Source: Escherichia phage ESCO5 | Length of the DNA: 64,000 nucleotides | Sequence record: NC_047776.2 | Strand: one strand, 5' to 3' | Part shown: positions 13,779 through 63,542 of the stretch, piece after piece | Layout: each line of letters begins with the position of its first letter | Position numbering within the stretch: position 1 is the first letter of the stretch | Notes under the pieces: generated by a model | Database searches by the model: none | Told to the model about the DNA's origin: nothing | The model's input: only the letters and a program-made list of their open reading frames with translations | Translations under genes and position numbers: made by a program

Positions 13779-13990
13779 ATTATTATATAGAAATCTACTA
13801 CTCGCTATCGCTCGTAAACATATGTTTAGGGTACCATACTTTTTTGAAAAAGTCAATGGTGACTCACCTATCAATTATCTGTTTAAGATAAGTCTTACCT
13901 ATCAATCTAACTCTTAACTAGTATTGCACCTATAGTAAGACTATTCCTATAGTTATTAACCCTCTTCTTCTGTAGAATGTAATTAGATCC

Positions 13991-26324: not shown

Positions 26325-26560
26325 TAATCTTCCCAGTCATTGCCCTCGGTAGAGTGAACTAAAGCTCGCACGATACCACCGTAATCTACTGCCTGATTTG
26401 CAGCATGTTCGGCATAAACTTCAATGGCTTTTTTGAAGAAAAGAGCAGTAGCTGCTTCAATATTATCCATTTCGCCATCTACATCAGTAGAAAGTGAAAG
26501 GTTGAGGCTTTCATCTACTTCATCAAAATCAATAGCCACTGTCATAATTAGTTTACCCAT
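26324..26560 (-). CDS. Hypothetical acidic protein
   Basis: 78-aa ORF. Confidence 0.4.
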   Translation of the reverse strand: MGKLIMTVAIDFDEVDESLNLSLSTDVDGEMDNIEAATALFFKKAIEVYAEHAANQAVDYGGIVRALVHSTEGNDWED

Positions 26561-26572
26561 AGTTCACACTCC

Positions 26573-27082
26573 TTAAACAAAATAAAATGGTTGAGAGAGG
26601 CCCAAACGATTCTTTGGGTCGTATACATACCAAGCGTATGCTGTCTTATCTGTTCCACCTGCAACAAACGAAGGCCGTTCTGAAAGGACTATAAGGTTTG
26701 TTGGTGGATTCTTTTGATGGAACTCTCGTCGTTTCTTTGACTCCAAGAAGCCCAACCGAAGAAGATAAATACAAACATCCGCCTCTTTTAAGCTCTTTTC
26801 CAAGAACTCCATTGCTAACTTAAATGGAGGATTTGTGATTATAATGTCGGGACGATTTTCCCATTCATGACTAAAATAATCTTTACCTTCTTCAAGTTCG
26901 CAATATTCTGAACCTTCAGGAAAATGGCGATAAATCGCTTCAGCTTCACCTCTGCAAGGTTCTGCAAAAACCCAACCTTCTTCCTTTAGATTTTTGAAAT
27001 CTATAACACTAAACAAACTATTGATTGCTTTTTGCGGTGTCGGATAATAATCGCTCGTTGGGCGATCATAATCTAATGCCAT
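26573..27082 (-). CDS. Small N6-adenine DNA methyltransferase-like protein (phage Dam type)
   Basis: IITNPPF catalytic motif (D/N-PP-F/Y) and size typical of small phage adenine methyltransferases. Confidence 0.55.
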   Translation of the reverse strand: MALDYDRPTSDYYPTPQKAINSLFSVIDFKNLKEEGWVFAEPCRGEAEAIYRHFPEGSEYCELEEGKDYFSHEWENRPDIIITNPPFKLAMEFLEKSLKEADVCIYLLRLGFLESKKRREFHQKNPPTNLIVLSERPSFVAGGTDKTAYAWYVYDPKNRLGLSQPFYFV

Positions 27083-27500
27083 CTAAAATCTCCTCTTTTG
27101 TAATATTATCCAACTCTTTAAAGGATGAAATCTCGTTTAATAATCCTATTTGATCAGCCTCTAGAGGATAAGTGTTTTTATCTGTTTTTCTAGACAGAAT
27201 ATCTTCAACAAACTTATCAATAGCCAAAGAAGAATCATAAAATTTTAAAAGTTGGTAATCCATAGGAGATATTTTGTCATCTCTTAGAAATATTTCTAAC
27301 ATGTTTTCAGGAGTATCGTGGTTTAGTTTATGTTCACCAAAAATATTAACTTCGTAAACATCTTTGCCAAACCAACGTTTCTTCTTTTCAACAGTATAGG
27401 TTTTTGCCACCAGACCATCTAAACAGTTTCTTGCCCTCTTACATGTTTGACGGTAAGAGTGGATAGCGCCTTCAACAAACTTAGCAGGAACTTGTAACAT
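27066..27500 (-). CDS. Hypothetical protein
   Basis: 144-aa ORF. Confidence 0.45.
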   Translation of the reverse strand: MLQVPAKFVEGAIHSYRQTCKRARNCLDGLVAKTYTVEKKKRWFGKDVYEVNIFGEHKLNHDTPENMLEIFLRDDKISPMDYQLLKFYDSSLAIDKFVEDILSRKTDKNTYPLEADQIGLLNEISSFKELDNITKEEILDGIRL

Positions 27501-42858: not shown

Positions 42859-43818
42859 TTAGATTCCAATGATAGTTGCTGCTCGTTTATCCTTGGATCT
42901 GGTGTTTGCTCTACTACGTGACAAACCTCCGCAAGATTCACAACGAATGATATCGAAAGAACTTACCGCAGTGTGGTATTGTTTACCAGTAACAACGTGA
43001 ACGTGATCACTGCCACAACGAGAACAACGGACCTTCTCATCTGGGTAATAAGCGGATAAGTTAGGATGCTGTGGAATCCACGGAAGGATTTTCATATACA
43101 AATCACGGAGTGAAACAACATCACCGTCATTGTAAATCTGCATACGTTCAAAAGCATCACGATCACCTTCACAACATGCTTTCCATAAAGGGAACCCCTC
43201 GTTATCCAGTTTTTCACTTTCTGTTTCGAAATATGCTCCCATTTCTTTAAGGGAGTTGGAAGGAAGTGCAAATTGTTTCTTAGCTGCCTTCAATGTATCA
43301 ACAACTACATAATTAGAAGGAGGAGCCATATCGTGATATGCAAATCGTTGGTTAATGTATGCACGGTCAAACTTATACCCGTTGTGTGCCACAACTACAT
43401 CTGCCTCATTCAGAAGGTTCCAAAGATCTTGGCAAAGCTCCCAATCATCTGTATGATCAATATCAAAAAGAGGATAAGAAGACAAATTCTTACCTTCCAC
43501 TTCACCAGTATACAGATCAGCAGAAGAATAAGATAACAAATAACCTCTGCGAATTACCTGGTCTGGAGAAATGAAGGCTTTGAATCGACGGAAAGTATAT
43601 GCAATCTCTGGTGCAGTTTCAACATCAATAATTTTAATAACTGGTTGTTTCTTTTTAACTGGTTCTTGTTTACTTCCACTGAAACGTGCAAGGAAATCAT
43701 TCACTGTGCTTTTTCTTGTTGGGCTACCTAAAACAATTGCTGCAATATTGCGAGAAGACATACCCTCTGCACTCATACTAAGGATATCTGCTTTCTGCTC
43801 TTCTGTTAATCTGCTCAC
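42859..43818 (-). CDS. DEDD-family 3'-5' exonuclease with N-terminal HTH and C-terminal zinc ribbon
   Basis: IDVETA (Exo I-like), VVVAHNGYKFD (Exo II-like), N-terminal resolvase-type HTH, C-terminal CSRCG...CESCG. Confidence 0.55.
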   Translation of the reverse strand: MSRLTEEQKADILSMSAEGMSSRNIAAIVLGSPTRKSTVNDFLARFSGSKQEPVKKKQPVIKIIDVETAPEIAYTFRRFKAFISPDQVIRRGYLLSYSSADLYTGEVEGKNLSSYPLFDIDHTDDWELCQDLWNLLNEADVVVAHNGYKFDRAYINQRFAYHDMAPPSNYVVVDTLKAAKKQFALPSNSLKEMGAYFETESEKLDNEGFPLWKACCEGDRDAFERMQIYNDGDVVSLRDLYMKILPWIPQHPNLSAYYPDEKVRCSRCGSDHVHVVTGKQYHTAVSSFDIIRCESCGGLSRSRANTRSKDKRAATIIGI

Positions 43819-44933
43819 TCTGCCTCCTGTTGTGAGATGTATGACTGAAGCATACTCTCAAATGTTGTATCGTCATTATCCCAGCGTTTCATGTATACCA
43901 ACTGGAAAATTGTTTCTATCCATTCATCTGTTGTCATATGGACTTCTTCTCCATCCCAAGAAGTAAAATTAACACCATCTGGGAACCACGAGTAGTAAGT
44001 ATCTTTAACTGTTTGGAAAAGCTCTGCTTGAGTTTTACAAGCTGAAAGAAGATTAAAACAAGTAATATCTCCAAACTTAATATCAAAATCTTGATAGGGT
44101 CGGATACTATCTGTTTTATCTCCCATTAGCATCTGATATGCTAACCAGTAACTGCCCCAACCTTTAACTTCTTTCTTTTTACCTTTATCTACGATCCATA
44201 TATCGCCAATAGATTCATCAATAAGAATTATATCTGGATTTTTAAAGACTCCATCTTCTTTGTAGAAATTAAAAAGAATACTAGGAGTATGTAAACTATC
44301 TTTATCTATAGATACCACGATATAAGAAAATTTACCCGTCCTTTTATAATCTTTATAACCTTGGAAACCATATTTCTCTAACTCATCGTCAGCCTCTATT
44401 ACAGTAACAACATCACCATTGTGGAACTCCACAAGATAATCTTTGGTTTCTGAAAGCTGAAGTGGTTTGATATCTAATCGTTCAGACTTATATTCTACAG
44501 GCATTTTGAAGGCGTGTCTGAAAGTTTTTCCTACGCCAATAACTCCGCAATATTTTTCTAAACGCAGATGTTTTAGAATACCTAAGACTTTTGTTTTAGC
44601 TGCTTGGAAGGTGTGTCCGATATCTTCTGGCGGGTATTGCTTATCAATAATTTCGAACTCTTCCTTTGTGAAGGGACGTTTGTTTTTGGAGGCTCTTTCT
44701 GCATTTGTATCTCCTAGCCAACCTCCAATTTTAGTCTTACTTTTACCCCAAAACTCTGTCTTATTTTTAAATTCCTTTTGAGCACCTGAAGGGATGTGCT
44801 TCGCAATGATTGTTCTTTTCTCTAATGCAGACGCTGCTTGGAAAGCAATCTGATCATAATCAATTGCAGCTATTGTCTCTTCGTTGACATATAAATGAAG
44901 ATCTTCAGGTTTAATTAAAATATAACCGCTAAT
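43815..44933 (-). CDS. T4 RNase H-like 5'-3' exonuclease / flap endonuclease; start codon non-canonical or unresolved
   Basis: AAIDYDQIA, YKSER, EADD, LIDESIGD and LMGDKTDSI motifs align with T4 RNase H; the conserved N-terminal part lies in a 147-codon open stretch with no in-frame ATG/GTG/TTG upstream of the track start at 44504. Confidence 0.5.
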   Translation of the reverse strand: MSGYILIKPEDLHLYVNEETIAAIDYDQIAFQAASALEKRTIIAKHIPSGAQKEFKNKTEFWGKSKTKIGGWLGDTNAERASKNKRPFTKEEFEIIDKQYPPEDIGHTFQAAKTKVLGILKHLRLEKYCGVIGVGKTFRHAFKMPVEYKSERLDIKPLQLSETKDYLVEFHNGDVVTVIEADDELEKYGFQGYKDYKRTGKFSYIVVSIDKDSLHTPSILFNFYKEDGVFKNPDIILIDESIGDIWIVDKGKKKEVKGWGSYWLAYQMLMGDKTDSIRPYQDFDIKFGDITCFNLLSACKTQAELFQTVKDTYYSWFPDGVNFTSWDGEEVHMTTDEWIETIFQLVYMKRWDNDDTTFESMLQSYISQQEAE

Positions 44934-44945
44934 ATTTCCCCCTAA

Positions 44946-52764: not shown

Positions 52765-53042
52765 TTTGCATTCCTCTTGTTGTTGATAACATCCATAGCA
52801 GTATATGGTTTATTAGTGCCATGATACTCCAGAATCATTGGAGATCCTTCTTGCACTACTTCAAAGATACCATAAACAGAACTTTCAGCAAATACCATTT
52901 GCTTCGTACCTTCATCGTTTACAACGAGAGAAAACTTCTTGCCTGTCCCGTTGAGGATCTCGTATTTCTTGCCAGCCGTGAATAATCCAGAGTACCACTC
53001 ATTATCTGTTGCTTTTACACACTTCAGGAAAGTCTTGATCAT
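52761..53042 (-). CDS. Hypothetical protein
   Basis: 93-aa ORF. Confidence 0.4.
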   Translation of the reverse strand: MIKTFLKCVKATDNEWYSGLFTAGKKYEILNGTGKKFSLVVNDEGTKQMVFAESSVYGIFEVVQEGSPMILEYHGTNKPYTAMDVINNKRNAK

Positions 53043-53607
53043 TTCTTTTTATCTCCTCTTTTAATCTATCTACTATACGAACATCATAGACGCCCTCTGT
53101 ATACATGTCAATAACTTCTTCAAGATAAACTTTTTTAGCTTTTCTGTAAGCTTCTTTTGCTGCCTCTTCTGTAGAAAAACTTCCAAGATAGAAGCCCTTA
53201 CCGAACTTACGGATGCTCGCTTGGTAGACCTTATCTCTCTTGTGATATGTAACACCCCTATAAGATGTCGAACCCATAAGTGCAAAATTCACATACTCTG
53301 GTATAAAGACACACGTGCTTGGTGAATAAACTTTAGAATCGGAAAGAAAATCCTTATCTAAAACTTTACCTTCCCAAGATTGACTCTCCATCCAGTTTTT
53401 GAAGTTAGAGAAGACCAACCATTCATCACAAACTTGAGAATTTTTGTATGCTGGCATCCTTGCCAACTGCTTCTCACAGTAACACCTACGCAACATATCC
53501 GTCCATCTCTCGTAATAAGGGCATGTCTTCCTTTTACCATCTTCTCCCCAAAAAGTAACTGGAACTTTTGAATCATTTATTCCTTTTCCGAACACTAGTT
53601 TTTTCAT
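53002..53607 (-). CDS. Homing-endonuclease-like protein with AP2-type DNA-binding domain (paralog of 36064-36723)
   Basis: FYLGSFSTEEAAKEAY AP2-like motif; W..M..RC, CDEW..FSNF and LDKDFL motifs shared with the ORF at 36064. Confidence 0.55.
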   Translation of the reverse strand: MKKLVFGKGINDSKVPVTFWGEDGKRKTCPYYERWTDMLRRCYCEKQLARMPAYKNSQVCDEWLVFSNFKNWMESQSWEGKVLDKDFLSDSKVYSPSTCVFIPEYVNFALMGSTSYRGVTYHKRDKVYQASIRKFGKGFYLGSFSTEEAAKEAYRKAKKVYLEEVIDMYTEGVYDVRIVDRLKEEIKRNDQDFPEVCKSNR

Positions 53608-54119: not shown

Positions 54120-54310
54120 TTCTTTACGTACTCCATGATTGGGGTATGGTCGCCAGTAAGCGTAACACGGCTGTAGGACACATCTTGTGTCTTCAATGTA
54201 TCAATCCACTCTAAGAAGTGTTCTTTCGCTTCTGTGTAGTTCTGTGTGCCTTTAACAACGTGTATACCATCTAGAGTTACACGGAATACCATTTGAATAA
54301 CGTCTTTCAT
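54116..54310 (-). CDS. Hypothetical protein
   Basis: 64-aa ORF. Confidence 0.4.
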   Translation of the reverse strand: MKDVIQMVFRVTLDGIHVVKGTQNYTEAKEHFLEWIDTLKTQDVSYSRVTLTGDHTPIMEYVKK

Positions 54311-54423
54311 TTCTTACCTCCCTTGTTTTCAAAATAACTTACTAGAACATCGTGAACCACACACATGGCAAAAATCAGAACAATTGTTGTCAGGACTGGA
54401 TTCTCACTAATTAGTGCTATCAT
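54307..54423 (-). CDS. Small membrane peptide
   Basis: Internal ATG with SD GGAGGTGG; hydrophobic. Confidence 0.3.
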   Translation of the reverse strand: MIALISENPVLTTIVLIFAMCVVHDVLVSYFENKGGKK

Positions 54424-54730
54424 CTTTAACCACCTCCAATTGCCTTTCGAGTTTGACTTTGTTTGAGAACTGATAATGACACAACTTACATTGCATGTCA
54501 ACAATCTGATCGTGATTTAACCCTACAATTTTAACTTCCTTTGCACCATCCCACTCCAAATACTCAAAGCCATCCAAATGATTACTCTTGTCCAACAGGA
54601 ATGCTATCTGCTGCCATTCAATCTGAATGTCATTTAAATGATATGCTGCACAGAATATATCTTCATAGTAAAAAACGATCATTGTCATTGCTTCGTCCAG
54701 CACAACTACCTCTTGTCTTGTAAATCTCAT
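54407..54730 (-). CDS. Hypothetical protein; first gene of the minus-strand block
   Basis: ORF with SD TAGGAGG upstream. Confidence 0.5.
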   Translation of the reverse strand: MRFTRQEVVVLDEAMTMIVFYYEDIFCAAYHLNDIQIEWQQIAFLLDKSNHLDGFEYLEWDGAKEVKIVGLNHDQIVDMQCKLCHYQFSNKVKLERQLEVVKDDSTN

Positions 54731-54980
54731 TCTAGCCTCCTAAACGCGTCTCTGACGCACTTTTTATATATAAGATGATAAATCACCTTACCTAGTAAGT
54801 GAACTTGCTCTACGAGCCTCTTATGAAGCTTATGTTATAGGCTATACTATTGCTACCTGTTTAAGCAAGGTTTTTGCACAAAGAAAATAATTTTTAATAA
54901 AACTCTTGACTTTTGTGTTCGAAGTATGCTACCCTAGAAATCTATTAACGAGCGCAGCGAGTTAAGGTTTTAGGTTGTTG

Positions 54981-55190
54981 ATGTAGTACTCTGTACTCAA
55001 GTACTGTACTCCGTACTAGATTAATAATTATTAAATATTAATAATAAATAATTATTAGATCTAACAAACAGGTACAGTGTATCAGAACTGGTACGTACAG
55101 ATCAACTTCTATCAATTAAAAAATAAAATAATAAATTATTATAAATAATACTTGATCTATAGATCAGTATGAAGTACAGTACAGAACATC
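54981..55190. repeat. Repeat-rich AT-rich non-coding region: five tandem GTACT motifs (54984-55017), AT palindrome TAATAATTATTA (55021 onward), GTAC-containing segment, palindrome GATCTATAGATC (55154-55165), inverted AGTACAGTACAG (55171-55187)
   Basis: Read directly from the sequence; lies between the divergent minus-strand and plus-strand blocks. Confidence 0.6.
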
Positions 55191-55212
55191 TTAACAAGAA
55201 TGGAGGTGTGCA

Positions 55213-55383
55213 ATGATTAGCGAGAATCCGTGCAAATGGCATCATGTACCTATTAAAGATTGTATGTCTTGTAATCCACGTTCTATTTATAACATTGCAT
55301 CTTATGACGATGACAATGTGTTAGACGATGATGAAGGCTGGGAGGATTTAGATTGGACTGGTTATGAAACCAAAAAAGGATAA
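55213..55383 (+). CDS. Small Cys-containing protein (56 aa)
   Basis: ORF below the track cutoff; SD GGAGGTG. Confidence 0.4.
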   Translation: MISENPCKWHHVPIKDCMSCNPRSIYNIASYDDDNVLDDDEGWEDLDWTGYETKKG

Positions 55384-55436
55384 AATTATTCCTAGTTGAC
55401 TTAAGATATCCTTCGTGCTAAACTAGAAGTGAGGAG

Positions 55437-55688
55437 ATGCCGATCACTCCCCATTTGGGGTTCGAAGGATATATGCAAAATAGTTTTTATTTTAGGCGCC
55501 GTGCTTGTAATAGGCATTTGACAAACCACTCCAGACGTGATAAAAATGGAGTCATCAAGGAATCAGACCTCTGTTCTATTTGCACAGGTTTGGCTTTTGA
55601 TGATAGTCCCGAAAGGGTTTATCAGCATCAATGTATAACAGACGTTCTCGTGTCAAACTTGGTAGAGGACGAACAACTAACAGATTAG
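55437..55688 (+). CDS. Hypothetical protein
   Basis: 83-aa ORF. Confidence 0.4.
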   Translation: MPITPHLGFEGYMQNSFYFRRRACNRHLTNHSRRDKNGVIKESDLCSICTGLAFDDSPERVYQHQCITDVLVSNLVEDEQLTD

Positions 55689-55696
55689 GAGGAACA

Positions 55697-55945
55697 ATGT
55701 CTCTATTAGAAAAACACGTGTTTGAAGATGGTAACGGCAATGCAGTTTTTCTTTTCCATCCAGAAAAATACACATCTGAAAACAATGGTACAACTTCTAT
55801 TGTAATCACTAAAGATGTTAAAGTTATTGATTTCTTGGCTCTGATGCGAGAGATGGATCTTGAAATTAATACTTTTAACGCAGAAGCTTTGGTTGTTGCT
55901 CTTCTGGAAAAGAAAGATAGTGAAGAAGTAGCAGAATATGCTTAA
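55697..55945 (+). CDS. Hypothetical protein
   Basis: ORF; ATG at 55697 after TTAGGAGG. Confidence 0.45.
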   Translation: MSLLEKHVFEDGNGNAVFLFHPEKYTSENNGTTSIVITKDVKVIDFLALMREMDLEINTFNAEALVVALLEKKDSEEVAEYA

Positions 55946-55952
55946 ATAACTA

Positions 55953-55982
55953 TTGACAAACGTATCCTTCATATGTTAGGAT
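55953..55982 (+). promoter_or_regulatory. Sigma70-like promoter with extended -10 (TTGACA, 18 nt spacer, TGnTAGGAT)
   Basis: Shares the AACTATTGACAA -35 context with the promoters at 56541 and 57509. Confidence 0.4.
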
Positions 55983-56192
55983 ACGTTCATCAAGTGTGGT
56001 AACAGGGTCGTTGACTTTTGTTAAGAGAGGCTTGCACTGCGGATAGTGTTAGAGACTACTTCTTCAGAGGTTAGCTACCAAAGAGGAAAAGGAATAGTCT
56101 CGGCTCAAGAACTTTTACGCTGAAAGTTGGGCTTGGTCTTAGAGAATGTAGCGGTTCCCTACAATCGTCAGCGTCTCTGTTACCACATTTAT

Positions 56193-56267
56193 GGCCCTGT
56201 AGCTCAATGGGAGAGCTGTCGGCTCATAACCGATAGGTAGCTGGATCGAAACCAGCCAGGGCCACCA
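56193..56267 (+). tRNA. tRNA with CAU anticodon (Met or lysidine-modified Ile2 type)
   Basis: Hand-folded cloverleaf: acceptor GGCCCTG/CAGGGCC, anticodon loop CTCATAA, encoded CCA; resembles E. coli tRNA-Ile2. Confidence 0.7.
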
Positions 56268-56269
56268 AC

Positions 56270-56344
56270 GTCTTTATGGTGTAATGGATAGCACAGGAGT
56301 CTTCTAAACTCTTAGTCAAGGTTCGATTCCTTGTAAAGACACCA
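56270..56344 (+). tRNA. tRNA-Arg (anticodon TCT)
   Basis: Acceptor GTCTTTA/TAAAGAC, anticodon loop CTTCTAA, T-loop TTCGATT, encoded CCA. Confidence 0.7.
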
Positions 56345-61883: not shown

Positions 61884-63449
61884 GTGTCAACAGGAAAAAG
61901 AACGTACACTAAAAAGTCAGAATACTGGGACAAAGGTGCTGCAAATAAAGCTGCTCTCTCTCCAACAAAAGAAGCAGAGAAAGAGAAAACGTTACTCCTG
62001 TCACCTGAAATAGGAACGATCGGATTAAACTCAATCAAAGCATTTACGAATTTCATGCAGCCTTATGAGACTCGTTTCCCAGAATGTATTCGAACTTTTA
62101 AAGAGATGGGTGAAGACCCTGATGTAGCTACTGCTCTTGATGCTACGTATATCTTTGTAGATAGAGCATTCTTTGATTTTAAGATAAAATACAATGTAAG
62201 CTCGGCAAAGTCAAGAAAAGCTGCTAAGTTTATCGATTATATGTTACGTAATATGCAAGCCCCTCTACGTCAATATGTTAGATCACTTTTGACATATAAG
62301 CAATACGGGTTTGCATTCGCAGAAAAAGTTTATGAGTTGGATGAAGATCCTAAGAGTCCTTACTTTGGGTATTGGCGATTAACTAAGCTGGCTTTTAGAC
62401 CACAAGATACTCTTCACATGGCTCAACCTTTTACATATTCGGCAGACGGACGTTCTATCTTGTCTGTTAACCAGAATATCACCAATACAATGTTAGCCCC
62501 AGGTAATACAACTTTAGAAACTGGTATTAAAGAAATTCCTTTCAGTAAAGTTTTATTTGTTGGTAGCAACATTACAGAGAATAACCCACTAGGAGTTAGT
62601 CCGCTTTTAGCTGTATATCGTAGCTGGCGTGAAAAATCTCTTATTCAGGAATTTGAGGTTATTGGGGTATCTAAAGATTTAGGCGGTATGCCAGTTCTTA
62701 AGGTTCCAAGTGACATTCTAAACAGGGCATCTTTAGATCCTGCTGGGGATGAAGCACAATCTCTTCGAGTTCTCCAAGCCAACATCGCTAACCTGCACTC
62801 TGGTGAGCAAGCCTACATGGTATTGCCTTCAGACGTTTATGAAGGTACAGTGATGCGTCAATACGATCTTGTATTCCAAGGTGTTGATGGCACGGGTAAA
62901 CAGTTTGACACTCAAGCACTAATCAAACAACGCAAACTAGATATTTATAACCGCTTTGGTGCGGGTGTGTTGATTATGGGTGATGGTGATGCAGGAAGTT
63001 TTGCGCTTTCTGACAACAAACAAACACTATTGTCTCATTTTATTGAGCGAGATGTAGATATTGTTGTAGAAGCTATAAACTCTCAACTAATCCCTCAAAC
63101 ACTACGACTAAACAATATCTTCCTTTCTGATGAAGATATGCCTAAGTTTGTCAGTGGTGAAATGGGTGATCCTGATATTGAAGTAAATGCTAAAGCTATT
63201 CAACAGTTGGTAGCCTCTGGTGCAATACCTTTAACCCCAGAAGTTATTAACGAGTTCCTTGAAAAAATTGGTTTTGAATATCGCATCCCTGACGATATTG
63301 TTGCCAATAAAGAGAAATTCTTTGAATTCATGGATAACTATATGCCTGACAAAACTTCACGATCAGGAGATGGTTTAGCTACAGCAGGGACTGGAACATC
63401 TGATACTGTTTCTGCTTTAGATCCTTCAGCACAAAACCTGTCGAATTAA
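61884..63449 (+). CDS. Putative portal protein
   Basis: 521-aa ORF immediately downstream of the terminase; GTG start after GGAGG; call is positional. Confidence 0.5.
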   Translation: MSTGKRTYTKKSEYWDKGAANKAALSPTKEAEKEKTLLLSPEIGTIGLNSIKAFTNFMQPYETRFPECIRTFKEMGEDPDVATALDATYIFVDRAFFDFKIKYNVSSAKSRKAAKFIDYMLRNMQAPLRQYVRSLLTYKQYGFAFAEKVYELDEDPKSPYFGYWRLTKLAFRPQDTLHMAQPFTYSADGRSILSVNQNITNTMLAPGNTTLETGIKEIPFSKVLFVGSNITENNPLGVSPLLAVYRSWREKSLIQEFEVIGVSKDLGGMPVLKVPSDILNRASLDPAGDEAQSLRVLQANIANLHSGEQAYMVLPSDVYEGTVMRQYDLVFQGVDGTGKQFDTQALIKQRKLDIYNRFGAGVLIMGDGDAGSFALSDNKQTLLSHFIERDVDIVVEAINSQLIPQTLRLNNIFLSDEDMPKFVSGEMGDPDIEVNAKAIQQLVASGAIPLTPEVINEFLEKIGFEYRIPDDIVANKEKFFEFMDNYMPDKTSRSGDGLATAGTGTSDTVSALDPSAQNLSN

Positions 63450-63477
63450 AAATATTTAATATTTTTTAATTTTTCTA

Positions 63478-63506
63478 TTGACAAAACAACAAATATCCTG
63501 TAGACT
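63478..63506 (+). promoter_or_regulatory. Sigma70-like promoter (TTGACA, 17 nt spacer, TAGACT)
   Basis: Consensus -35 upstream of the ORF at 63543. Confidence 0.4.
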
Positions 63507-63542
63507 AAGATTTATGGGATATCTGTTTTTAAGAGGTTTCAA

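Follow-up and report, generated by a model that had tools for sequence, protein, structure and literature searches.

A predicted divergent early promoter region with inverted GTAC-rich arms between two gene blocks of Escherichia phage ESCO5

In Escherichia phage ESCO5, two gene blocks point away from each other across a gap that is crowded with short GTAC repeats, runs of pure A and T, and a perfect palindrome. We asked what this gap does. The stretch analyzed is 64,000 nucleotides (nt) of sequence record NC_047776.2 (the window), and the gap lies at positions 54731 to 55212. An earlier note, made from the letters alone, had proposed that it is a replication origin or a regulatory center. We favor, with moderate confidence, the view that the gap controls divergent early transcription in a phAPEC8-like myovirus and that the GTAC-rich arms are accessories to it. 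The regulatory part of the earlier proposal holds up through a conserved promoter layout, but nothing that we found identifies an origin.

The ESCO5 window belongs to Phapecoctavirus, in the subfamily Stephanstirmvirinae (the phAPEC8-like Escherichia coli myoviruses). Positions 54300 to 55700 are 100% identical to Escherichia phage vB_EcoM_REC (OM386667.1; here REC), and the window as a whole matches REC at 99.8 to 100% for most of its length. Because the first ~9 kb is only ~97% identical, with several indels, we take the window genome to be a close relative or recombinant of REC. Near the locus, a window position equals the REC position minus 2473. Genome-scale statistics (GTAC, AT runs, stability, palindromes, and skew) were taken from the ~156-kb genome of REC, the nearest record. 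The gap is bounded by a minus-strand gene end at 54730 and a plus-strand gene start at 55213, which match REC_00203 and REC_00204 of OM386667.1, so the divergent arrangement first described is correct. To the left is the first gene of a 37-kb minus-strand block (nucleotide metabolism, ligase, exonucleases). To the right is a plus-strand block of small genes and ten transfer RNA (tRNA) genes, followed by terminase, portal, head, and tail genes. The first plus-strand gene encodes 56 amino acids (aa) with a Cys/His-rich N-terminus and an acidic tail (PHROG 26411, function unknown), and the tRNA cluster comes after it.

The gap is present in 63 phage records at 94 to 100% identity. For conservation we compared five lineages: REC-type, phiWec188-type, phi92 (Justusliebigvirus), Citrobacter phage Tr1, and Klebsiella phage phi1_175008. 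The flanking protein of the four other lineages is 33 to 94% identical to that of the window (93.5% in phiWec188, which is of the same genus, and 33 to 58% in the remaining three). Viral and metagenome collections gave only four more distant loci. Within-lineage variation was read from an alignment of the gap in 12 diverged isolates and close relatives. Our literature search on origin, promoters, and termini in the subfamily returned only the rV5 and BME3 papers, neither of which maps promoters or an origin, and it returned no transcript data for Stephanstirmvirinae.

The reading that we favor is carried by three predicted promoters, P_L facing left and P_R1 and P_R2 in tandem facing right. 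P_L was found by a promoter scan and P_R1 by pattern searches; P_R2 was read from the sequence and fits the loose pattern of our promoter census. The promoters and the leader elements around them are these:

54735-54758, minus strand: leader of the first minus-strand gene, with the hairpin GCGTCAGAGACGC (54758-54746), a ribosome-binding site AGGAGG (~54741-54736), and ATG at 54730.
54775-54803, minus strand: P_L, a predicted sigma-70-type promoter with -35 TTCACT (54803-54798), a 17-nt spacer, and -10 TATCAT (54780-54775).
54884-54902, plus strand: a 19-nt AT-only tract before P_R1, resembling an upstream promoter (UP) element.
54906-54935, plus strand: P_R1, predicted, with TTGACT, an 18-nt spacer, and the extended -10 TGC-TACCCT; putative start near 54942.
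54945-54965, plus strand: leader box or hairpin TTAAC-GA-GC-GCA-GC-GA-GTTAA, core GAGCG-N(1-2)-AGCGAG, at about +4 to +24 of the P_R1 transcript.
55152-55180, plus strand: P_R2, predicted, with -35 TTGATC (55152-57), a 17-nt spacer, and -10 TACAGT (55175-80).
55202-55215, plus strand: ribosome-binding site GGAGG and ATG of the first plus-strand gene.

The hexamer spacing (17, 18, and 17 nt for P_L, P_R1, and P_R2) and the orientation fit sigma-70 promoters for the flanking genes. Each of the three has a counterpart in all four of the other lineages. P_L is invariant across 12 close relatives, and its counterparts at the same position are TTGACT-17-TACCAT in Tr1 and TTGACA-17-TATCAT in phi1_175008 (hexamers assigned by eye); phi92 and phiWec188 match only weakly or in part. 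At P_R1, TATGCTACCCTAA is kept in phi92, Tr1, and phi1_175008, and ATGTGATACCCTAA stands at the same place in phiWec188. The counterparts of P_R2 are stronger in the relatives, with TTGACT-17-TAGAGT in phi92 and phiWec188 and TTGACC-17-TACACT in phi1_175008, and an AT-only tract of 23 to 35 nt precedes the promoter, at the position of the window's AT-only run 2, in phi92, phi1_175008, Tr1, and phiWec188. The order common to the five lineages is P_L, P_R1, box, a variable leader of ~150 to 200 nt, an AT-only tract of 23 to 38 nt, and P_R2. The divergent promoters that the earlier note had called for are accordingly predicted here, at positions conserved in five lineages. In the isolate alignment the minus-strand leader stem GCGTCAGAGACGC, which scored as terminator-like on the plus strand, is also invariant.

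The composition upstream of the promoters is in keeping with this. An A/T-rich tract occupies -40 to -60 at both rightward promoters (100% A+T before P_R2, 80% before P_R1), and the 30 nt 5' of the P_R1 -35, at 80% A+T, are among the highest in the census. That census of sigma-70-type promoter matches found dozens, many with TGn, and 39 of the 47 strict matches run in the same direction as the local genes; two of the eight contrary ones are the junction promoters themselves. The rV5 paper predicted the same sigma-70 promoter type and expected bidirectional promoters at such junctions (PMC3606486).

The box lies 13 to 16 nt past the -10 across lineages. Its core is invariant in seven copies from five lineages, and three of the four outer stem pairs have changed on both sides (RNAalifold). 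The predicted hairpin energy is ordinary (-4.3 kcal/mol, z = -0.25), so the support for the box is conservation and covariation, not thermodynamics. A scan of 54500 to 56300 against Rfam 15 matched only tRNA-Met, other scores being far under threshold, and a similarity search of the leader against E. coli genomes and plasmids gave no match. The REC genome has three near-identical copies of the P_R1-plus-box module: in the gap, at window position 13856 on the minus strand, and, ahead of genes of the same orientation, at REC 134840 (also minus strand). This promoter-plus-hairpin module is previously undescribed, is conserved across the subfamily, and is present in three copies per genome.

The window copy outside the gap (13800-13856, minus strand) has a GAGCG-AT-AGCGAG box and points leftward in a 360-bp gap inside a plus-strand block. 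Two hairpins lie in its path, its direction is antisense to the upstream genes, and it may drive a small or antisense RNA. The 200 bp downstream of it are among the six least stable in the genome.

The repeats named in the earlier note are present, and other elements lie among them. One per line, they are:

54985-55017, plus strand: left GTAC array, with five GTACT at 54986, 54993, 55001, 55006, and 55013, including two CTGTACT.
55017-55063, no strand assigned: AT-only run 1 (AT-only 55020-55057, 38 nt) with TAGAT/AGATCTA flanks; an imperfect palindrome.
55072-55103, plus strand: middle GTAC group, with GTACAG (55072), GTACGTACAG (55091-55100), and then GATC.
55114-55150, plus strand: AT-only run 2, 37 nt, abutting the P_R2 -35.
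55153-55166: palindromic 14-mer TGATCTATAGATCA, containing the 12-mer GATCTATAGATC at 55154-55165.
55173-55184, plus strand: right GTAC array AGTACAGTACAG, overlapping the P_R2 -10 and start.

The five tandem GTACT motifs stand at 54986 to 55017, with start-to-start spacings of 7, 8, 5, and 7 bp around a 5-nt core, and the inverted AGTAC array on the far side is AGTACAGTACAG. The AT-only palindrome is the 38-nt run 1, which together with its flanks can form a hairpin or cruciform with arms of 16 to 17 bp (55017-32 and 55047-63; z = -4.0 as DNA or RNA). In phage UP17, an extra C in the left arm makes it a perfect 17-bp inverted repeat (arms compared by eye). The 12-bp palindrome is really a 14-mer, spanning the P_R2 -35 and spacer, and palindromes of this kind are as frequent as chance predicts: the genome has 44 of at least 12 bp, against 44.5 +/- 7.8 in Markov simulations. 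AT-only run 2, the GTAC sites at 55072, 55091, and 55095, and four GATC sites had been overlooked. Four GATC in 120 bp is the tied genome maximum (27 of 15,618 windows reach the same count). As candidate operator motifs or Dam clusters, TAGATCTA, AGATCT, and GATC showed no genome-wide enrichment and only mild clustering in the gap, and the T4-late-type TATAAATA at 55140 has four patternless copies in the window.

Two properties of the gap are extreme. The first is the clustering of GTAC. This tetramer is among the most avoided 4-mers in the window, with 70 sites against a Markov expectation of 186 (observed/expected, 0.38). The gap nonetheless holds 10 of the ~166 genomic sites, all within 197 bp, where by our own arithmetic ~0.2 would be expected per 200 bp. 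A 200-bp scan with a 20-bp step over the genome gave counts of up to 9; the top 14 windows (down to 5 sites) all fall in the gap region, and no other window comes close. The clustering is far beyond chance, and because tandem copies are not independent events, any p-value would overstate the case. The second is duplex stability. Runs 1 and 2 are the two longest AT-only runs in the genome, and the gap is the genome-wide minimum of nearest-neighbor duplex stability in 40-, 100-, and 200-bp windows (at 200 bp, -216.8 against a genome mean of -257.1, standard deviation 8.7).

The two sides of the gap look like a diverged inverted duplication. Runs 1 and 2 are 72% identical as a direct repeat, and 54999-55017 matches the reverse complement of 55164-55182 at 15 of 19 positions (our own count), a 19-nt imperfect inverted repeat. 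On these two figures, the left array plus run 1 would resemble an inverted copy of the segment from run 2 to the P_R2 -10. The RNA fold of the leader pairs 55001-17 with 55166-82 (leader fold z = -3.1 against shuffled sequence).

We read the AT tract as promoter-associated because of two observations. The third-longest AT-only run (63444-63474, 31 nt) also abuts a good promoter match, CTATTGACA-17-TAGACT. Phage nieznany has lost run 2 through a 67-bp deletion, which leaves run 1 directly upstream of P_R2. The run and promoter at 63444-63510 stand between the portal gene, just upstream, and the scaffold and major head genes, in the arrangement seen at P_R2.

The phAPEC8-type lineage alone has the left array, run 1, and the middle group of GTAC sites. 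No GTAC arrays occur in phiWec188, phi92, Tr1, or phi1_175008, and the phiWec188 type, although of the same genus, has unrelated AGATCT-rich sequence at the array position. A 53-nt query over the left array (54972-55024) had 100% identity in 44 matching phage records and 95 to 99% in 19 more. Among the 12 aligned isolates, the gap varies mainly by small duplications and deletions, such as duplications of TTAAGGT(T) and of ATTATAAATA. Natural variants also lack parts of the cluster: dw-ec has lost 14 nt with two GTACT copies, EP57 the right array, and nieznany the middle GTAC group along with run 2. In KKP3954, four of the five GTAC cores of the left array and 7 of the 10 in the whole cluster are gone, so the cores are dispensable for viability.

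The KKP3954 losses belong to a genome-wide purge. This phage, on which our literature search found nothing, has lost 18 of 37 aligned GTAC sites (7/10 in the gap, 11/27 elsewhere) against 1.7% overall divergence, and its observed/expected ratio is down to 0.16. Seven of the 11 coding changes are synonymous, which led us to reject a sequencing artifact as the cause and makes the purge look like real selection. Restriction avoidance would explain it most simply. The GTAC ratio is 0.38 to 0.51 in the lineage that bears the cluster and 0.72 to 0.95 in phi92, Tr1, and the Klebsiella phage, and this lineage-specific avoidance suggests pressure from a GTAC-recognizing restriction system. The window also avoids CCGG (observed/expected, 0.36) and GGCC (0.43). 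For the two phage methyltransferases, one of which might modify GTAC, Pfam and PDB sequence searches gave nothing usable. A unique GTAC cluster in a genome that otherwise avoids GTAC is a small puzzle.

From the observed features, statistics, conserved layout, and natural variants, we infer how the promoters, the box, and the arrays may work. Host sigma-70 RNA polymerase would start leftward at P_L and rightward at the tandem P_R1 and P_R2. P_R1, with its extended -10, would be strong; it belongs to the three-copy promoter class that always bears the GAGCG-N-AGCGAG box at the 5' end of the transcript; the box may stabilize the message or bind a regulator. P_R2 would serve from just before the first plus-strand gene, with run 2 as its UP-like tract; the palindrome falls within its -35 and spacer, and its -10 and start are overlaid by the right GTAC array. 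Run 1 and the left GTACT array would be a lineage-specific, partly inverted duplicate inside the ~270-nt P_R1 leader. The role of the inverted GTAC-rich arms is probably regulatory: they may jointly tune rightward early transcription or translation. A protein might bind the two as paired operators, or the two might form a long-range stem within the leader RNA of P_R1. We take them to be dispensable accessories and not origin iterons.

Known control regions offer partial parallels. Tandem sigma-70 promoters equipped with a UP element and an extended -10 are found in the E. coli rrn P1-P2 pair and among the early promoters of T-odd phages. Like these, and like the predicted rV5 promoters, the gap has 17- to 18-nt spacers, TGn at P_R1, A/T-only tracts before the -35, two promoters in tandem (~245 bp apart), and a tRNA cluster downstream. 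It differs in that the P_R1 -10, TACCCT, is unusual yet strictly conserved, in having a hairpin box past the start, and in that its starts are predicted. Lambdoid phages, in turn, use divergent pL and pR promoters with nut sites, and their structured N leader is cleaved by RNase III. The gap is similar in its back-to-back early promoters between opposed early blocks, its small conserved hairpin box near the transcript start, and its long structured leader before the first small gene. In contrast to the lambdoids, this phage is virulent, we recognized no repressor/Cro pair, and the box is unlike boxA or boxB. For an N-like protein, a neighboring 71-aa protein with an arginine-rich N-terminus is a lead only. 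MetJ met-boxes are short tandem repeats bound by ribbon-helix-helix proteins, and gal and lac have looped operator pairs. The gap motif copies are likewise ~7 to 8 bp apart, and an inverted second set lies ~165 bp away over a -10. Unlike met-boxes, one spacing in the gap is only 5 bp and the binding protein is hypothetical; unlike gal and lac looping, the 165-bp separation is no clear whole number of helical turns.

The 71-aa open reading frame (ORF; 55473-55688) also has Cys pairs. It is preceded by an extended -10 promoter, TTGACT-17-TGCTAAACT (the pair spanning window 55396-55688). It is annotated in phiWec188, and in a longer form with an upstream ATG in phAPEC8, EP57, and Ro121lw; in REC it is unannotated. 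Further extended -10 promoters lie within the tRNA cluster at 55953, 56541, and 58362.

Several points weigh against the control-region reading. P_L, P_R1, and P_R2 are all predictions, and P_R2 in the window matches the consensus at only 4/6 plus 4/6 positions. AT-only tracts of 37 to 38 nt exceed the usual length of a UP element (~20 bp in the canonical form). The locus is the least stable duplex in the genome and in phi92 (first 50 kb), and the lowest also in every relative's locus examined; such a minimum fits a DNA-unwinding element as well as it fits a strong upstream promoter element. The unique GTAC cluster and the identity of the left array in 44 records hint at a specific function. 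Among the neighboring genes we found no candidate for a DNA-binding protein, and searches of the neighboring and lineage-specific small genes as regulator candidates gave no family matches. As for an RNA stem between the arms, few substitutions are informative, and the KKP3954 ones cannot be separated from the effect of the GTAC purge.

These points lead to the alternatives. One that we regard as possible, if doubtful, is that the GTAC arrays and the duplicated AT run are functionless, the product of slippage or local (inverted) duplication in a tolerant leader. Function would then be confined to the promoters, the hairpin box, and the AT tract that adjoins P_R2. The arrays are indeed lineage specific, small tandem duplications and deletions are common in the gap, and KKP3954 lost its cores there at least as readily as elsewhere. 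However, simple slippage cannot produce the inverted arrangement of the arms. Because GTAC is selected against genome-wide, ten extra sites should also be costly, yet the 53-nt stretch over the left array is fully identical in 44 matching records from many countries.

A role in replication could coexist with the promoters. T7 has a primary origin in which promoters phi1.1A and phi1.1B are followed by an AT-rich stretch, and T4 oriF and oriG combine a promoter with a downstream DNA-unwinding element. By analogy, transcripts from P_R1 (perhaps also P_R2) might invade the AT tracts, form an R-loop, and prime the leading strand for a T7-like replisome, with no need of a dedicated initiator protein. 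We consider a transcription-primed origin of this type unlikely. In its favor, a predicted promoter is followed within ~100 bp, as in T7 and T4, by the genome's most AT-rich and least stable DNA: P_R1, conserved and predicted to be strong, lies ~80 nt upstream of a 38-bp tract of 100% A+T, and a second tract begins 55 nt beyond. The stability minimum recurs at the phi92 locus (first 50 kb), which there holds the only AT-only run of at least 20 nt, and in four other lineages, and the repeat cluster is unique in the genome. Also as in T7, the phage's replication proteins include a family A DNA polymerase and a primase-helicase resembling gp4 (a Toprim-DnaB fusion), and no initiator is annotated in the REC record or recognized among the neighboring genes. 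Unlike in T7 and T4, the transcribing enzyme would be the host polymerase, the AT tract is also, or only, the upstream element of P_R2, and initiation at the gap is hypothetical. A similar AT-only tract, at 63444-63474, precedes an ordinary promoter, and one AT run or parts of the arrays have been lost in viable isolates.

Cumulative GC skew, the check that the earlier note had suggested, does show a local minimum at the locus, but it gives no independent support. On the composite REC genome, the maxima lie near 19.6 and 100 kb and the minima near 57 and 135 kb. All four extremes are switch points of gene orientation, and the skew is therefore uninformative on the origin; the rV5 authors reached the same conclusion on GC skew (PMC3606486). 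The lowest value of all falls not at the gap but at the second divergent junction, near 135 kb. In addition, skew is weaker in the right-hand plus-strand block than in the other four blocks, whereas a fork leaving the gap would be expected to strengthen it; gene class confounds this comparison, however.

That other junction (REC 136517-136635) is 118 bp long. It has back-to-back promoters, TTGACA-16-TGTTAAGAT leftward and ACTTGATCT...TATCAT rightward, the latter reusing the -35 sequence ACTTGATCT of P_R2, and it is without AT-only runs or repeats, yet it is the global minimum of cumulative skew. A further place for an origin search is REC 142856-143665 (26383-27192 in the locus L023 numbering), an 800-bp noncoding AT-rich stretch beside a GC-rich gene on the opposite strand. 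It contains two ~45-bp direct repeats (CAAAAGTGAAAGTTGAAAACCAAAATTTAAAGTTTAGG...) and Fur-box-like sequences (GATAATGATTCGCATT), and it ranks second for instability among 200-bp regions of the genome.

A bolder form of the origin idea is that the locus is the main origin of phAPEC8/phi92-like phages, primed by transcripts of the host polymerase, with the P_R1 module firing into the least stable DNA and, in the phAPEC8 lineage, the GTAC arrays binding a phage protein. We hold this to be quite improbable. If it were true, off-target binding by a GTAC-recognizing phage protein would explain the purge of GTAC elsewhere in the lineage.

The iteron-like arrangement that the earlier note had seen, in which a phage initiator would bind GTACT/AGTAC and melt the AT tract between, fares much worse, and we give it very little credence. 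Iteron origins have three or more direct repeats of ~17 to 22 bp, helically phased; lambda ori and plasmid oriV are of the iteron type, and the SV40 core origin combines pentanucleotide arrays, an AT tract, and a palindrome. The gap shares with these its short repeats in both orientations beside AT-only, unwinding-type DNA (38 plus 37 nt of 100% A+T at the genome's stability minimum) and a palindrome, and its repeat cluster is unique in the genome. In contrast, its core is 5 nt, and the copies are 5 to 8 bp apart, irregular, and not helically phased; Tandem Repeats Finder reports only the AT run and no other array. We found no DnaA, IHF, or Fis sites and no oriC-type 13-mers in the region, apart from one relaxed DnaA-like 9-mer (TTTTGCACA), and searches there for LexA, CRP, met-box, and TrpR-type sites gave none. 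Resemblances to LexA (TACTGT/ACAGTA) and TrpR (GTACTAG) half-sites are not arranged as real operators. No cognate initiator, that is, no Rep-, O-, or DnaA-like gene, lies nearby: eight of the nine nearest proteins have no Pfam match and fall in PHROG families of unknown function, and an HNH-AP2 homing endonuclease makes up the ninth (the comparison did not extend to remote homology). The repeats are also not conserved among relatives that share the replication genes. They are absent in same-genus relatives whose flanking genes are ~93% identical and in the rest of the subfamily, and the losses in KKP3954, dw-ec, and EP57 speak against iterons as well.

Weakest is a packaging or terminus signal (pac, cos, or the boundary of a terminal repeat). 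In the P1 pac site, clusters of short methylatable motifs flank the cleavage region, and here two clusters of a short palindromic motif with GATC sites flank a central segment and the nieznany record starts 28 bp inside the adjacent gene, but we find the idea barely credible: the records of the group begin at arbitrary positions, the 343-bp direct terminal repeat of phi92 is annotated at 1-343 while its homologous locus is at 47.8-48.2 kb, and BME3 has a 342-bp terminal repeat (PMC12210895).

Elsewhere in the window, the HNH endonuclease gene with an AP2 domain (53002-53607, minus strand) is also present in REC. Nepoznato, nieznany, and phiWec188 do not have it at this place, which makes it a probable mobile insertion of a homing endonuclease. 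The tRNA cluster of nepoznato has another HNH gene in the place of tRNA-Gln. A 440-bp stretch at 44505-44945 lacks both an annotated gene and a long ORF on the minus strand. It sits immediately upstream of an exonuclease-like ORF of 229 aa (43815-44504), whose apparent positional counterpart in phi92 encodes ~345 aa, so the exonuclease-like gene may be frameshifted or split in the window.

For the subfamily, these results bear on a part of phage biology, the control of transcription and replication, that is unstudied in Stephanstirmvirinae, although these phages are often isolated as therapeutic candidates. The analysis yields a concrete, testable map of the early control region, in which the obvious origin-like features have a simpler explanation as promoter elements. 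With its conserved least stable duplex, the locus would also be the first candidate site for tests of an origin.

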